DNA of 64,000 nucleotides from Candidatus Saccharibacteria bacterium UBA1944 (GTDB lineage Bacteria > Patescibacteriota > Saccharimonadia > Saccharimonadales > Saccharimonadaceae). The position numbers and the translations under genes were made by a program. The notes under the pieces were generated by a model, which was not told the origin of the DNA, did no database searches, and saw only the letters and a list, made by a program, of their open reading frames with translations. Shown here piece by piece: positions 5,860-10,653 of the stretch. The first letter of the stretch is position 1; the number at the start of each line of letters is the position of its first letter. The stretch spans positions 8,910-72,909 of the forward strand of contig DDEW01000002.1 in NCBI GenBank assembly GCA_002336935.1. Direction: 5' to 3'.

Positions 5860-6597
5860 ATGGAAGTATCACTTACACATAAACAGGAATTTATCGATGC
5901 CCTTACTGGGTATCAACCTTCGGCCGAAGCGGTAGCGACGCTTGCACAAATGCCTCTTGTGATTTTGCTCAGCGTTACTGGTGGTGGACGCAACACGATT
6001 ATCAATGAACTCGTTGCAACGGGTCGCTATCATTTTATTGTGTCGGACACTACGCGCCCACCCAAGGTCCGCAATGGTGAACTTGAGCAGGATGGAGTTG
6101 TATACCACTTTAGGAGTGAGGAAGATGTCCTGCATGATATTCGTGAAGGAACCTACTTAGAAGCTGAACTGATTCACAATCAGCAGGTAAGCGGCACCAG
6201 TGTACGTGAGCTTGTGAAGGCGCATGACAGTGGCAAAATTCCTATTAATGAAGTCGACTTAGGCGGCACCGATGCAATTGCTGCAGTCAAGCCCGATACG
6301 GTGTTTTTGTTCGTTGTTCCACCCTCATTCGATGAATGGATGCGCAGGCTTCGCACCCGTGAGAACATGAGCGAAGACGAGTTGCGTAACCGCTTGCAAA
6401 CCGCGGTGCATATGCTTCGTAGGGTACTCGCCAGTGAGAGGTTCGTGTTTGTTATCAACGACGACTTAGCTGAAGTTGTCAGCACAGTTGACGATTATGT
6501 GCGGGGTGAGCATCACCATACGCACAACGACCAAGCACGCCAAGTGGCGCAAGTACTTCTTGACGATACGCTGCGCCATTATCCGGAACTTAGCTAA
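5860..6597 (+). CDS. gmk: Guanylate kinase-like protein (degenerate P-loop)
   Basis: VSDTTRPP...E.DGVVYHF, YLEAE..H...SGT and FVVPPSF.EWMRRL..R motifs. P-loop reads SVTGGGRNT. TATAAT lies 6 nt upstream of the ATG. Confidence 0.7.
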   Translation: MEVSLTHKQEFIDALTGYQPSAEAVATLAQMPLVILLSVTGGGRNTIINELVATGRYHFIVSDTTRPPKVRNGELEQDGVVYHFRSEEDVLHDIREGTYLEAELIHNQQVSGTSVRELVKAHDSGKIPINEVDLGGTDAIAAVKPDTVFLFVVPPSFDEWMRRLRTRENMSEDELRNRLQTAVHMLRRVLASERFVFVINDDLAEVVSTVDDYVRGEHHHTHNDQARQVAQVLLDDTLRHYPELS

Positions 6598-6842
6598 CGG
6601 CGCTTTGAATGCCGGTTACGGCCCTTGAAAAGAATAATAAGAGCAATAACAATCAGGACAATGCCCACTCCGACGCCAATGATCATATTGGTACCAGTGC
6701 TGGGTAATGCTCCCGAATCTGTAGACGTGCAGGCCTGCTGGGAATTATACGTTCCTGCACCATATGCGCTACAGTCGTAGTCTGCAGTGGCTCCAAACGT
6801 TGTTGAAACGCGCACAATAGGGGAGCTTGCATTTATAACCAT
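6594..6842 (-). CDS. Small LPXTG-type cell-wall sorting protein (82 aa)
   Basis: LPSTG (6693-6707), then a hydrophobic helix and a KGRNRHSKRR tail. Two Cys flank YGAGTY. A -10-like element lies immediately upstream. Confidence 0.6.
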   Translation of the reverse strand: MVINASSPIVRVSTTFGATADYDCSAYGAGTYNSQQACTSTDSGALPSTGTNMIIGVGVGIVLIVIALIILFKGRNRHSKRR

Positions 6843-6875: not shown

Positions 6876-6899
6876 CAGGATACCCCGAAGTAGGACACT
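6876..6899. repeat. IS terminal inverted repeat (transposase 3' side)
   Basis: CAGGATACCCCGAAGTAGGACACT versus the reverse complement of 7927-7950, CAGGTCCCTTTGAAGTAGGACACT: 18/24 identical, inner 13 bp perfect. Confidence 0.85.
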
Positions 6900-7848
6900 A
6901 AGCCTGTATTGTTAAGTACTCTAAGTATACCTCATTTGCTGTTTTGTAGCCCAAGACTTGTCTTGGGCGTTCGTTTAGGTACGTTAGTACCGTAACGATC
7001 GTTTCTTTTGTGACCGTGCTAAGATCTGTCTTCTTCGGGATAAAGTGACGGATCCATTTGTTCGTGTTCTCAACCAGCCCCTTCTCCCAGCTATGGTAGG
7101 GATGGGTGAAATAGAACGGCGCACCCAGTAGTTGTTCGAAATACGTCCAGTACGTAAAGGCAATGTCGTTGTCAGTGAGGATAGTTTTGACGGCAACGCC
7201 GTCAAACATCTTCCGTAGAGCTCGCGAGAGCTCTTGTTTGGTTCGGTTGGGGAGTAGTTCTATGAGGGCTCGTTTGCTGAGTGTATCGACGGCCACGAGC
7301 AGCACAGTCTTGCTCCCATTCGTCCCGTCACGGTTCTTTGTCGGGCTGACGATGAAGTCGAGCTCCCAGTGGCCAATCTCATCACATAGGATACGCTCTT
7401 CAATCCACTTCCGTTCACCGATGAGCCCACGGCGATACATCGCTTTGCGTCGCTTTGGTTTGCCTCGAAAGTACAGCTTGTGCTGTAGTGCATAGATCGT
7501 GACGTAGCGATAGATAGTCCGTTTTGAAACAGGACAGTCACGGCTACCCGCAATCTCGCCCGGAGACCAACTCTTGTCGAGGCTGTCGTCGACATATTGG
7601 CGCAACGCTTTGTCGCGAGCAACTTTGTTACTAGACGTTCTCGCATAGTAGCGCTTCTGGTAAGCCTTGATGCTCGCTTTGCGAGCGACGTATTCGCCAG
7701 AAACCGCCAGGTGCTTCAGTTCATAGCTGATGGTATTGGGGCTGCGCCCCAACTCACCAGCTATGTAACGAATGCTTTTACCGTTCTTATGCCAATGCTC
7801 TATCTTAACTCGATCTTCATAGCTTAAGTGATCGTACTTCTGACCCAT
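6898..7848 (-). CDS. IS30-family DDE transposase
   Basis: N-terminal HTH HLSYEDR..IE......SIR.IA..LGRSPNTISYEL; catalytic region GHWELD, ILTDND..F, HPYHSWEKGLVENTN..IR.F.PK.TDL. Start may be 7848 or 7905. Confidence 0.92.
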   Translation of the reverse strand: MGQKYDHLSYEDRVKIEHWHKNGKSIRYIAGELGRSPNTISYELKHLAVSGEYVARKASIKAYQKRYYARTSSNKVARDKALRQYVDDSLDKSWSPGEIAGSRDCPVSKRTIYRYVTIYALQHKLYFRGKPKRRKAMYRRGLIGERKWIEERILCDEIGHWELDFIVSPTKNRDGTNGSKTVLLVAVDTLSKRALIELLPNRTKQELSRALRKMFDGVAVKTILTDNDIAFTYWTYFEQLLGAPFYFTHPYHSWEKGLVENTNKWIRHFIPKKTDLSTVTKETIVTVLTYLNERPRQVLGYKTANEVYLEYLTIQA

Positions 7849-7926
7849 AGCTACTATTGTAGATTTTGATCTGCTTGTTTTTCTAACTTTTCTATACCGT
7901 TTCATACATCCTCGCCTTTCTTGGCG

Positions 7927-7979: not shown

Positions 7980-8159
7980 ATGCCGAACATCGGAGTACCA
8001 GAACTAATCGTTATTCTTGTCATTCTCCTCCTTCTTTTTGGAGCCAGGAAATTACCAGAACTTGCACGCAGCATTGGTTCTTCAGCCAAAGAGCTGAAAG
8101 GTGCAATGAAAGACGACGAGCCCGCAAGTGGCAAAAAGAGCGACAAAGACAAAGACTAG
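7980..8159 (+). CDS. tatA: Twin-arginine translocase subunit TatA (59 aa, below the ORF-track cutoff)
   Basis: Manual translation [59 protein letters not shown]: TM helix, FG hinge, KLPEL.RS.G amphipathic helix. SD-like AAGGGAG upstream. Confidence 0.92.
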
Positions 8160-9168
8160 TTTTAAGCATCGTGACGAGTCGGTTCTGCCAACTTTCTTGG
8201 ACCACGTCCACGAGTTGCAGGGCCGACTCTTTGCCATTTTGCTTGCCTTTCTTGTAGTAGGTGGTGCAGCCTATCCATTTTTTGATAAGATAGTAACCCT
8301 GATTGTCGCGCCGCTTGGTAACAGCCAGCAACTTGTGTACCTGACACCCGGTGGCGCCTTTAGCTTCATTATTAAGGTTTGTCTTTATGTAGGGGTCATC
8401 GGTGCATTACCGGTTATTATTTATCATTTATATCGGTTTTTAATGCCCGCAGTGAAAAAAGTACACTTGAGGACCGTATTGGCTTATATGCTTGCATCAT
8501 TTGTATTTGCCATTGCGGGCGTCGCATTTGCCTATGTTGTGAGCCTGCCAGCAGCGCTGCACTTTTTGACGAGCTTTGAGTTGTATCACATCAGCCCCAT
8601 GCTTACTATTGACTCCTATTTTTCTTTCGTTATGACGTATTTGCTAGCGGGGGCACTTCTGTTTCAGCTTCCCATTGTCATGCTTATTATTAACTCTGCA
8701 ACACCGTTGACGCCGAGTAAACTCATGGGTGCTCAAAAAGGAATCATTGTTGGATCATTCGTAGCTGCAGCTATTATTTCTCCTACACCAGACGCGCTCA
8801 ACCAGACACTTCTTGCTTCGCCGATTATCATTATGTATCAGCTGGGTATTGTGATTGTGTGGCTACGAAACCGTCGCTTGCAGCCAGAGAGGCAACGCGA
8901 GGCTGTCCCGCGGCACCAAGAATCAACTCACGACATGGTTTCTAGCCAGGTGGCGTTACTACCGGAGCGATCTGCAGCGGTACTGCTGGATCATAGGGTG
9001 CGTACGCTTGATGGGTTTACAGTACGGCAGCGCCAACATGGTGAGCCAGGGCATCCTAGAATGTCGCTTAGCGTACCTACTCGGCAAACAGCCCAGCCTT
9101 CCCTCGCTTCTGTGTCACATCGTCCGCGGCAGACCATCGATGGTTTTTTTGCCCCCGCTCGCTCGTAA
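8128..9168 (+). CDS. tatC: Twin-arginine translocase subunit TatC with long C-terminal tail
   Basis: [31 protein letters not shown] and [15 protein letters not shown] motifs; six TM segments; directly downstream of tatA. The GTG start overlaps tatA. Confidence 0.88.
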
Positions 9169-9172
9169 ATGC

Positions 9173-9201
9173 TTGTGCTTTTATATAGCTGAGTGTATAA
9201 T
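9173..9201 (+). promoter_or_regulatory. sigma70-type promoter for the 73-aa ORF
   Basis: TTGTGC-17 nt-TATAAT. Confidence 0.55.
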
Positions 9202-9234: not shown

Positions 9235-9456
9235 ATGAAAACACCACAGCATCTAACAGAGTTAATGAACAAGCGTATGGATCGCCAGGAGTTTTTGAAG
9301 CACCTTGCGGTTGGTACACTATTGGTATTCGGTGGCGGTGCTATTGCTAACGCACTTGGACTATCGCAGCGGTTAGGCATCGATGCGCCGGGTAATGGCG
9401 GCTCTGCACAATATGGTTATGGCGCCAGTGTCTACGGTGGCATAAAACGTTCATAG
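9235..9456 (+). CDS. Small protein (73 aa) consisting of a Tat-like signal/anchor and a Gly/Tyr tail
   Basis: MDRQEFLK followed by the hydrophobic HLAVGTLLVFGGGAIANAL and a C-terminal YGYGASVYGG; has its own promoter. Confidence 0.65.
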   Translation: MKTPQHLTELMNKRMDRQEFLKHLAVGTLLVFGGGAIANALGLSQRLGIDAPGNGGSAQYGYGASVYGGIKRS

Positions 9457-9538: not shown

Positions 9539-10653
9539 ATGGCACGATTACCGCAACCGGGTGGTGACGCAGGAAACTGGGGCGAGATACTAAATGAGTA
9601 TTTGTCGCAAGTTCACAATACAGATGGTACCCTTAGCCGTCTATTATTCAGTCATCAAACCTAGCCACCGATGCAGTAAGCACCAATGCTCTTGCAAATA
9701 ACTCTGTGACAACGAGCGTACTTGCAGTAAGTGGGGGTACGGACGGCCAAGTTCTCACAAAAGACAGCCTGCAACCTGGGGGGCTGGCGTGGCAGTCGGT
9801 AAGCGTTACTGGGGGCGTATCGAGCGTTAATACCCGCACCGGTGTGGTGACGCTAACGGCATCAGATGTTGGCTTAGCAAATGTTAATAACACCGCAGAC
9901 ACCGATAAACCGGTGTCCTCCGCCGTTCAAACTGAGCTCAACAAAAAAATTGATACGACGGATAAGGGTGTCGCAAATGGTGTTGCTACCCTTGACTCGT
10001 CGGGCAAGGTGACCTCATCGCAGATGCCCGTGACGAGTCAGGTGAATAGCGATTGGGATGCAACAAGTGGTGTGGCGCAGATACTGAATAAGCCCACGAT
10101 TCCTGCACAGCTCAATGCAGCTGCAGGCGCCAACATGACAATCACTGGCACATATCCAAACCTTACGTTTGTCGCTGCTTCAAGCGCGACAGATCTTTCT
10201 TTCACGTCGACTGCTACGAACGCGACGATTGCTAGTAGTACTGGCGTTGATGCAACGATGACGGGTGCTTCTGCAACCAACGCGGGTGTAATGGTTGCGG
10301 CTGACAAAACAAAGCTAGATGGTGTTGCAGCCGGAGCTACTGCCAATGCGACCGACGCGCAGCTTCGTGATCGCGCTACGCATACTGGTACGCAGGCTAT
10401 CGCAACGGTTACTGGATTGCAAACCGCCCTTGACCTTAAGCTTGACTCCGCAAATGTAGACATTGACACTGGATTAGTTGCAAATAGTGATACCAAAGTT
10501 GCATCACAGAAGGCAACAAAAACATATGTAGATACGCATCTTGCTACAAAAGCCGATGCCACAATGGTAGGTGCTAAAGTTTTATTAATTGATAACGCCG
10601 CAGCACTTCCCGCGGGCACTCCGGCAGGCGTAGTCGTTGTTGTAAAGGTCTAG
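9539..10653 (+). pseudogene. MARLP-type phage-tail-fibre-like surface protein with an apparent 1-bp deletion near 9635
   Basis: ATG 9539 gives MARLPQPGGDAGNWGEILNEYLSQVHNTDGTL and stops at 9664. The -1 frame from 9637 continues PSIIQSSNLATDAVSTNALANNSVTTS into ORF 9706-10653. Tail-fibre-like motifs: SVNTRTGVVTL...DVGL.NVNNT.D.DKPVS, KGVANGVATLD, QVNSDW.A.SGVAQILNKP, DKTKLDG. Confidence 0.7.

Follow-up and report, generated by a model that had tools for sequence, protein, structure and literature searches.

A free-standing Tat signal encoded beside tatC in Saccharibacteria: a candidate signal-anchor supplied in trans to phage-fiber-like proteins

Proteins exported by twin-arginine translocation (Tat) normally carry their own signal, in which the arginine pair is close to invariant. 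Here, we describe a gene of Candidatus Saccharibacteria bacterium UBA1944 whose product, a 73-residue mini-protein, consists of a Tat-type signal and a short polar tail and is encoded directly after tatC and directly before a gene for a phage-tail-fiber-like protein. The locus lies within a stretch of 64,000 nucleotides (nt) (hereafter, the window: contig DDEW01000002.1, positions 8,910 to 72,909 of the forward strand) of the 950-kb, 20-contig assembly GCA_002336935.1; all positions below count from the first letter of the window. The open reading frame (ORF) at 9235..9456 (+ strand) begins with ATG at 9235, 66 nt past the tatC stop, ends with TAG at 9454-9456, and encodes, in 73 codons, the product MKTPQHLTELMNKRMDRQEFLKHLAVGTLLVFGGGAIANALGLSQRLGIDAPGNGGSAQYGYGASVYGGIKRS. 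By all signs of its sequence, this ORF is a real gene; its ratio of nonsynonymous to synonymous substitution rates (dN/dS) is 0.08 against the relative at locus L084, which is 75% identical.

From the N terminus onward, the mini-protein presents a short helix, the segment MDRQEFLK (residues 15 to 22), a Gly-rich uncharged helix of 23 residues, Arg46, and a disordered tail ending in GYGASVYGG-IKRS. The segment MDRQEFLK stands in register with the Tat consensus S/T-R-R-x-F-L-K, with Gln18 replacing the second Arg. An AlphaFold2 model built from a 95-sequence alignment places one helix at residues 5 to 12, a break at an Asp cap, and a second helix at residues 17 to 40 with a predicted local-distance difference test score (pLDDT) of 85 to 93, such that the motif and the hydrophobic region form one continuous helix; the tail has a pLDDT of ~50 and no secondary structure. 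These features agree with a preliminary description of the sequence, which had recognized a Tat-like signal with RQ at the twin-arginine position, an h-region behind it (here, the uncharged residues His23 to Gln45), a Gly/Tyr tail in place of a cargo domain, and a location directly after tatC. That description had also assigned the gene a sigma70 promoter of its own. A promoter-like site does precede the gene, with a perfect −10 element; its −35 element matches at only three of six positions, and a consensus promoter scan did not list the site, leaving a separate promoter doubtful. Cotranscription with tatAC is equally possible, since no terminator-like site was seen between tatC and the mini-protein gene.

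The mini-protein belongs to a large family. A profile search yielded 1138 clusters at 90% identity, none of which bears a name other than "hypothetical protein," and an exhaustive hidden Markov model (HMM) search yielded 1380 representatives at 50% identity (386 of them at E ≤ 1e-10); all 150 representatives listed of these 1380 are 56 to 102 amino acids (aa) long and have no passenger domain. The related loci come from metagenome-assembled genomes (MAGs), nearly all of Candidatus Saccharibacteria/Saccharimonadales. Loci L013 to L061 were picked through the pattern GYG[AS]S[VA]YGG, taken from a five-sequence alignment; this choice leaves statistics on the N-terminal motif unbiased and renders C-terminal conservation within those loci biased by construction, and the HMM-based sets bear out the conservation at both ends. 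In alignments of 53 and 95 sequences (a comparison that the preliminary description had proposed as a check), the R-x-x-F-L register is kept: Arg17, Phe20, Gly33, Tyr62, Gly63, Tyr67, and Gly68 are invariant, and Lys13, Met15, Leu21, Gly61, Ser65, and Gly69 are nearly so (Leu21, Gly61, Ser65, and Gly69 at ≥90% each). The uncharged stretch of the h-region is 19 residues long at the median, with 19% Gly and a mean hydropathy of 1.8, and in 251 of 260 members (97%) the next charged residue is Lys or Arg. Toward the end of the h-region, 218 of the 260 show small-x-small patterns; Leu or Met stands at position −1 in many (e.g., VIKLL and IIRLL), so that the family has no conserved signal peptidase site.

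At the second motif position, the family norm is R-K rather than R-R, and the RQ of the window, although correctly read, is a minor variant. The residue after the invariant Arg is Lys in 46, Gln in 3, Arg in 2, and Thr, Ala, and Gly in 1 each of 54 genome-derived members, and Lys in 104, Arg in 23, Gln in 9, and others in 9 of 145 scored representatives at 50% identity; across both sets, this amounts to 72 to 85% Lys, 4 to 16% Arg, and about 6% Gln. The window mini-protein thus lacks two consecutive arginines (D-R-Q-E-F-L-K), which are found in distant members, and otherwise has the elements of the Tat consensus (the first Arg, Phe, Leu, and Lys in register, a Gly-rich h-region, and a basic c-region). 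The Tat signal model TIGR01409 (cutoff, 16.7 bits) gave no match to it at E values of up to 1 and scores RR-type relatives at 16.9 to 17.6 bits, just over the cutoff; no Pfam family matched the mini-protein above threshold. Among curated models, NCBIfam NF038009 ("TatB_1," "twin-arginine translocation system-associated protein") comes closest; this 70-position subfamily model aligns its positions 4 to 70 with residues 5 to 73 (57.5 bits; E = 1.2e-15). By homology, size, and encoding together with tat genes, the mini-protein belongs there, but the score falls below the curated cutoff of 100 bits, as do those of all 41 related genomes that we searched (relatives, 30 to 75 bits; best, 75.3 bits; RK-type, 55 to 75 bits; RR-type, 14 to 32 bits), so that it is a divergent relative for which the NCBI pipeline would give "hypothetical protein," the label of every named database member found. 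The NF038009 name conveys association only and no mechanism, and a literature search on this name and on the mini-protein family found no paper. Membership of the TatA/TatB family was considered and rejected: no TatA/B/E model (PF02416, TIGR01410-01411) matches, and the order of elements is the opposite of that in TatA/TatB, with the polar helix first and the membrane helix second in the AlphaFold2 model.

The presence of the mini-protein follows that of tatC. Both genes occur in 12 and neither occurs in 29 of the 41 related genomes; of the 25 genomes from the genus of the window, just 3 retain tatC and the mini-protein. Among 251 evenly sampled Patescibacteria, 14 have tatC, and 10 of these 14 also have the mini-protein; the 237 tatC-negative genomes returned two weak partial matches that are apparently spurious. 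The genes are also physically linked: in 49 loci collected independently of tatC, tatC lies ≤3 kb from the mini-protein gene in 47, in the orders tatA-tatC-mini, mini-tatA-tatC, and tatC-mini-tatA. Because the cassette usually sits between lepA/gmk and hrcA-grpE or groESL, it looks ancestral, with repeated loss. Several genomes have two mini-protein genes (L070, in tandem on G169:C74; L074, on G273:C5; and G036, G039, and G032), and the second copies tend to precede extra fiber genes and not to adjoin tatC. As for other Tat clients, a loose home-made pattern screen of the 950-kb genome found no further ORF combining R-[RKQ]-x-F-L-K with an h-region, returning only pilin-like, Sec-like, or anchor-like RR N termini and noncoding noise.

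The site on TatC that reads Tat signals is resolved in Escherichia coli. In a 2026 cryo-electron microscopy structure of TatBC with substrate, the first Arg of the signal lies stacked beneath F94 and reaches TatC E15 through a water molecule, the second forms a salt bridge with E103 while packing against Y100, and the signal Phe fills a pocket of F94, L9, H12, and L13; E103A abolishes binding and serves as the binding-negative control (PMC13323110). A 2026 review calls the TatC site inactive when F94 and E103 are absent (PMC13673990). We compared these positions in alignments of 54 to 66 TatCs and in an alignment to Aquifex aeolicus TatC (4b4a). The window TatC has His26 and Glu29 in the places of H12 and E15 and Phe104 in that of F94; Y100 is replaced by Lys110, and E103 by His113 (8464-8466). 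Among the TatCs of RK/RQ lineages, the equivalents of H12 and E15 are present in 54 of 54 and the F94 position is Phe or Tyr in 54 of 54; the E103 position is acidic in 0 to 1 of 60. Three genomes from another Patescibacteria family encode mini-proteins with two arginines (TRRDFLK, SRRDFLK, TRRSFLK, and SRRDFLK) that retain a C-terminal GYGxxxYG, and their TatCs keep the Glu, as do those of the tatC-positive genomes without a mini-protein (three of three aligned, from four). By these alignments, then, the contacts of the first Arg and of Phe are kept on both proteins and that of the second Arg is lost on both, as expected if the mini-protein docks directly and canonically on TatC. TatC differs between these groups in a further respect: most RK-type TatCs (310 to 440 aa) carry, near the C terminus, one or two motifs of the form x-[LIVM]-D-G-[FILVM] (or Y-[VI]-N-D-F) that are missing in Patescibacteria TatCs of the RR type and in those of genomes without a mini-protein (242 to 306 aa for both), and these D-G-F motifs may be a docking site.

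The gene directly downstream of the mini-protein gene (9539...) starts MARLPQPGGDAGNWGEILNEYLSQVHNTDG, an instance of a 35-aa N-terminal module (consensus, MARLPxPGGDxGxWGxILNxFL; hereafter, the MARLP module) that heads signal-less phage-fiber-like proteins. The module is positioned at Met1 of proteins of about 200 to 1900 aa that have no hydrophobic signal and whose bodies match phage minor-tail/tail-fiber PHROGs or a Pfam phage-tail repeat or consist of collagen-like Gly-x-y runs. Searched with a 35-residue profile, it was found in 12 of the 41 relatives, namely, in 11 of the 12 Tat-positive and 1 of the 29 Tat-negative genomes (the two exceptions being 87 to 88% complete), and its presence agreed with that of Tat in 16 of 16 other genera. 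In the sample of 251 Patescibacteria, the 10 genomes with the module are exactly those with the mini-protein, and the 241 others lack it, including the four that have tatC and no mini-protein. Since module-bearing genes exist in one to eight scattered copies per genome, this coupling goes beyond physical linkage. A module-bearing gene comes next after the mini-protein gene in about 16 of 50 loci, and even mini-protein genes far from tatC have one 100 to 150 nt on (in G039, on contigs C14 and C1 of G032, and in G273): the second copy of G039 (at 230.6 kb) is 55 kb off tatC, that on C14 of G032 is on another contig, and G273 supplies a second such copy. No homologs of the fiber bodies were found in Tat-negative relatives. 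In phages, such fibers fold and trimerize in the cytoplasm. A transporter of folded proteins would be the natural route to their display. Six records of Streptomyces phages also contain MARLP-type modules, at 50 to 55% identity; in one case, the module belongs to a "collagen triple helix repeat-containing protein." In phage BRock (L089, KX925554.1 100826-100924), the module lies in a tRNA-rich region outside the tail module, and the phage context is uninformative; because the annotated start, 70 codons upstream, overlaps a tRNA gene, the true start is probably the MARLP-like Met.

The features of the locus are collected in Table 1.

TABLE 1 Positions of genes, protein segments, and sites at the tat locus of the window
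Feature	Position	Strand	Basis or remark
LPSTG micro-protein, 82 aa, YGAGTY motif, divergent from tatA	6594..6842	-	Pfam Gram_pos_anchor 5e-4
IS30-type transposase (HTH_38 + rve)	6898..7905	-	Between the LPSTG micro-protein gene and tatA
tatA, 59 aa	7980..8159	+	Pfam TatA_B_E 2.6e-16; TIGR01411 65.4 bits, above cutoff
tatC, 346 aa, overlaps tatA	8128..9168	+	Pfam TatC 1.5e-49; NCBIfam
TatC cytoplasmic C-terminal extension, ~100 aa (residues about 250-346), Pro/Arg/Gln-rich, with RTLDGF and QTIDGFF	8875..9165	+	
Promoter-like site, TTGTGC (9173-9178), 17 nt, TATAAT (9196-9201)	9173..9201	+	Read from the sequence
Mini-protein P0001, Tat signal only, 73 aa	9235..9456, stop codon included	+	ORF; NF038009 57.5 bits; dN/dS 0.08
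Tat-type motif M15-D-R-Q-E-F-L-K22	9277..9300	+	Arg17 and Phe20 family-invariant; Gln18 at the second-Arg position
Gly-rich h-region of 23 uncharged residues (His23-Gln45), including family-invariant Gly33; basic Arg46 (c-region) comes next	9301..9369	+	
Disordered polar tail Arg46-Ser73	9370..9453	+	pLDDT ~50; no secondary structure
C-terminal motif G61-Y-G-A-S-V-Y-G-G69, followed by basic residues	9415..9441	+	Conservation
Signal-less phage-tail-fiber-like gene, MARLPQPGGDAGNWGEILNEYL N-module, frameshifted after codon 33	9539..9664, then open frame 9645..10653	+	PHROG minor-tail/tail-fiber matches
Signal-less GDPD phosphodiesterase-domain protein, 780 aa	10658..13000	+	Pfam GDPD 4.2e-9; phrog_17803 phosphodiesterase 6.4e-63

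Several neighboring genes recur at related loci. The 780-aa GDPD protein, which also matches a tail-fiber PHROG, occupies the same place after the fiber gene in L084 and L086 and may be a further passenger, a wall-polymer-cutting enzyme in need of an export route. The 82-aa LPSTG micro-protein gene is likewise in the same place in L084 and L086; in L084 and L086 to L088, it directly abuts tatA, with no IS30-type transposase between them. This micro-protein is too divergent to profile: only three weak matches were obtained, two of them beside tat loci (G034 and G036). YG-type motifs are present on surface proteins encoded nearby, both on the LPSTG micro-protein (CSAYGAGTYNSQQAC) and at the mature N terminus of neighbors with a Sec signal (L038:838-1602 and L054:828-1589; STYGSGAYGDCKYSTGC), and in 13 of 50 loci, tatA is closely preceded by a sortase gene (Pfam Sortase 9e-23). 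Between the window and L084 (8128..9456 versus L084:2950-4278), the synonymous substitution rate (dS) is 0.33 in tatC and 1.74 in the adjacent mini-protein gene; taken with the unequal fiber lengths of close relatives (371 and 493 aa), this jump suggests that a variable surface cassette begins here, at a recombination boundary.

From these observations, we consider it somewhat probable that the mini-protein is a TatC-docked, uncleaved Tat signal-anchor supplied in trans, serving as a hitchhiker carrier or anchor for the fibers. The two halves of this proposal differ in strength: docking on TatC is very probable, and chances are even for the role as carrier or anchor. What the sequences show directly is the conservation of the family, its linkage to tatC, the covariation with the receptor, and the coupling to the fiber module; from these, physical docking, topology, non-cleavage, binding of the fiber by the tail, and coexport are inferred. 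The D-R-Q-E-F-L-K n-region would dock canonically in the signal peptide site of the co-encoded TatC, where Arg17 would contact Glu29 and Phe104 (E15 and F94 of E. coli) and Phe20 would occupy the hydrophobic pocket; the contact with the second Arg would have been abandoned on both sides, with E103 of TatC replaced by His113 and the second Arg by Lys or Gln. TatAC would then insert the Gly-rich helix with its N terminus in and its C terminus out, such that the tail of ~28 residues, with its GYGxSxYGG motif, would end up outside the membrane. While still cytoplasmic, the mini-protein would bind the signal-less, prefolded, and probably trimeric MARLP-module fibers, probably through its YG tail; the fibers would pass Tat as hitchhikers on the mini-protein, which would afterwards tether them to the membrane.

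Several observations weigh against this proposal. Ala-Asn-Ala at residues 38 to 40 fits a signal peptidase site, making cleavage possible, and the tail has a net positive charge, so that charge alone gives no support for its location outside. As regards the receptor, 15 of 60 RK-type TatCs have an Asp or Glu one or two positions earlier than E103, two Saccharimonadia members of the RR type (L017 and L057) pair with Glu-less TatCs, and the covariation may stem from only one or two evolutionary events. As regards the fibers, their co-occurrence with the mini-protein could mirror a shared ecological gene set and not a partnership. In an AlphaFold2 model of L028, where mini-protein, linker, and fiber are naturally read through in one frame, the YG tail has a pLDDT of 43 to 47 and forms no strand, a weak test in that the model is of a monomer, the alignment is shallow and mixed/paired, and the partner is probably trimeric. 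Furthermore, the sole MARLP-module fiber gene of the window genome has a one-base frameshift after "DGTL" (about 9632-9645), where relatives read DGTLKPSIIQSS without a break (L084, 371 aa, and L086, 493 aa, both intact), although the fiber body here is 93% identical to that of the 371-aa gene of L084 and contains no internal stop. The frameshift may be an assembly error or the incipient decay of the pair, which would fit the loss of the tat/mini-protein cassette in 22 of 25 congeners.

Two other explanations keep the mini-protein at the translocase and remove it from the transport of fibers. It could be an ordinary class III Tat substrate, that is, an anchored peptide whose exposed GYGxSxYGG tail acts outside, either by binding the wall or host or as an external docking site for fibers exported by another route, and that carries nothing across. 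The signal-anchor anatomy, the tatC linkage, and the covariation fit this explanation equally well, as do the lack of docking in the L028 fusion and the YG-type motifs on neighboring sortase- or Sec-targeted surface proteins, and Tat tolerates small, unstructured, hydrophilic passengers (PMC13673990). We nonetheless regard it as unlikely: it leaves the signal-less fiber proteins without a route of export and gives no reason for a minimal genome to retain a folded-protein translocase for a disordered tail of 28 residues, and the MARLP module matches the distribution of the mini-protein exactly over the 251 genomes, more tightly than does tatC (10 of 14). Alternatively, the mini-protein could be a translocase subunit, a signal peptide mimic that stays in the TatC site as a TatB-like coreceptor, a primer of TatA assembly, or a plug. 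The NCBI name of the nearest model, the perfect co-occurrence with tatC within the order, and the conservation of the n-region ahead of the motif (L..LL.KEM) beyond what is usual for signal peptides all point this way, and R-K in place of R-R would yield a poorly transported, long-lived ligand. A subunit, however, would hardly be missing from 4 of 14 tatC-positive Patescibacteria, nor would its gene be expected far from tatC yet beside fiber genes or in two copies per genome; in addition, the mini-protein has no similarity to the TatA/B family, its distribution tracks the fiber module more closely than tatC, and the invariant C-terminal motif would have no role, all of which makes this explanation quite unlikely.

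The remaining two explanations take the mini-protein away from the translocase altogether or treat it as a mere precursor. Cleavage after Ala-Asn-Ala40 would free a Gly/Tyr peptide of ~33 residues, as expected of the precursor of a secreted pheromone, a bacteriocin-like peptide, or a modified peptide, and the A-x-A at residues 38 to 40, the small-x-small patterns in 218 of 260 members, and a conserved C-terminal motif that could be the active part are in keeping with this. The peptidase site, however, is not conserved (Leu or Met being found at −1 in many members), conservation is stronger in the signal than in the linker, and the recurrent neighbors include no modification enzyme, immunity gene, or dedicated protease; a peptide precursor is therefore very improbable. 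We attach less credence still to a lack of any functional connection to Tat, according to which a small membrane protein inserted by Sec or YidC merely shares the tatAC neighborhood. The missing twin arginine of the window mini-protein and the absence of matches to TIGR01409 or, above threshold, to Pfam would agree with such a protein, but not the co-occurrence in 41 and 251 genomes, the linkage that persists through changes in gene order, the canonical RR motifs of distant members, or the matching change in the TatC binding site.

The separate elements of the favored proposal, in which the mini-protein acts as a signal-anchor in trans, have precedents. Both hitchhiker coexport and uncleaved Tat signal-anchors (class III, e.g., Rieske proteins) are established (PMC13673990; PMC4273604): in hitchhiking, signal-less partners fold, bind a polypeptide with a Tat signal in the cytoplasm, and leave together with it (PMC4273604; PMC13673990). 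The logic proposed here is the same as that for E. coli HybO/HybC, DmsA/DmsB, and PaoABC and for arsenite oxidase AioAB, in each of which one partner with a Tat signal carries signal-less partners. Known carriers, however, are folded and usually cofactor-binding subunits, whereas the mini-protein has only a signal and a tail of ~28 residues and would, if binding and coexport take place as proposed, serve interchangeable phage-fiber-like cargoes via a common 35-aa N-module. Rieske Fe-S proteins use an uncleaved N-terminal Tat signal as an anchor with the N terminus in and the C terminus out (PMC13673990), and the mini-protein resembles them in the basic residue that follows the h-region. Rieske proteins carry a folded cofactor domain and the mini-protein none, and its non-cleavage is suggested by the poorly conserved peptidase site.

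Small proteins with Tat signals have also been modeled before. TIGR02811 ("formate dehydrogenase region TAT target") is a 66-position model of proteins close in size to the mini-protein (~70 residues), which comprise a Tat signal and a short conserved C-terminal segment and are encoded beside the enzymes that they presumably accompany. RR-type mini-proteins match this model weakly and only in the signal (E = 1e-3 to 0.06); outside the signal there is no homology, and the C-terminal motif, the neighborhood (formate dehydrogenase versus tatAC and fibers), and the taxa all differ. In Bacillus subtilis, phoD-tatAd-tatCd unites a minimal TatAC in one operon with the protein that it handles (PMC13673990), as is the case here; PhoD, in contrast, is a large, folded enzyme whose RR signal is cleaved off, and its TatC has kept canonical recognition, whereas the mini-protein has no cargo of its own and an altered receptor site. 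What sets the family apart from all canonical Tat signals is an R-K/R-Q motif paired with an altered receptor.

Taken further, these features would amount to a "split-signal" Tat pathway in Patescibacteria, an idea that we offer tentatively, as possible and, for now, doubtful. It would consist of a TatC that has lost its salt bridge to the second Arg and acquired x-h-D-G-F motifs on an added cytoplasmic tail; a separately encoded signal-anchor with a single arginine, some 65 to 75 residues long, that is read by this altered TatC; prefolded cargoes, either phage-derived fibers or collagen-like or enzyme-bearing proteins, that would be bound by the GYGxSxYGG tail via the shared 35-residue N-module; and sortase-anchored YG micro-proteins, encoded adjacently, that could receive the fibers on the wall.

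The family described here is a large natural one in which a Tat signal exists as a separate gene. The joint loss of the second Arg and of the receptor Glu, with RR/Glu pairs surviving in a sister lineage, constitutes a natural experiment on how TatC reads signals, and a portable "signal in trans" would be useful for the engineered export of folded proteins. For the organisms themselves, the proposed mechanism offers a plausible answer to the question of how ultrasmall epibiotic bacteria display folded phage-like fibers and enzymes that have no signal peptides, and it suggests why genomes of ~1 Mb keep Tat even though the one genome scanned showed no conventional substrate. If true, split-signal Tat would be a dedicated surface display organelle for interchangeable cargoes, with its export signal provided as a separate gene product.

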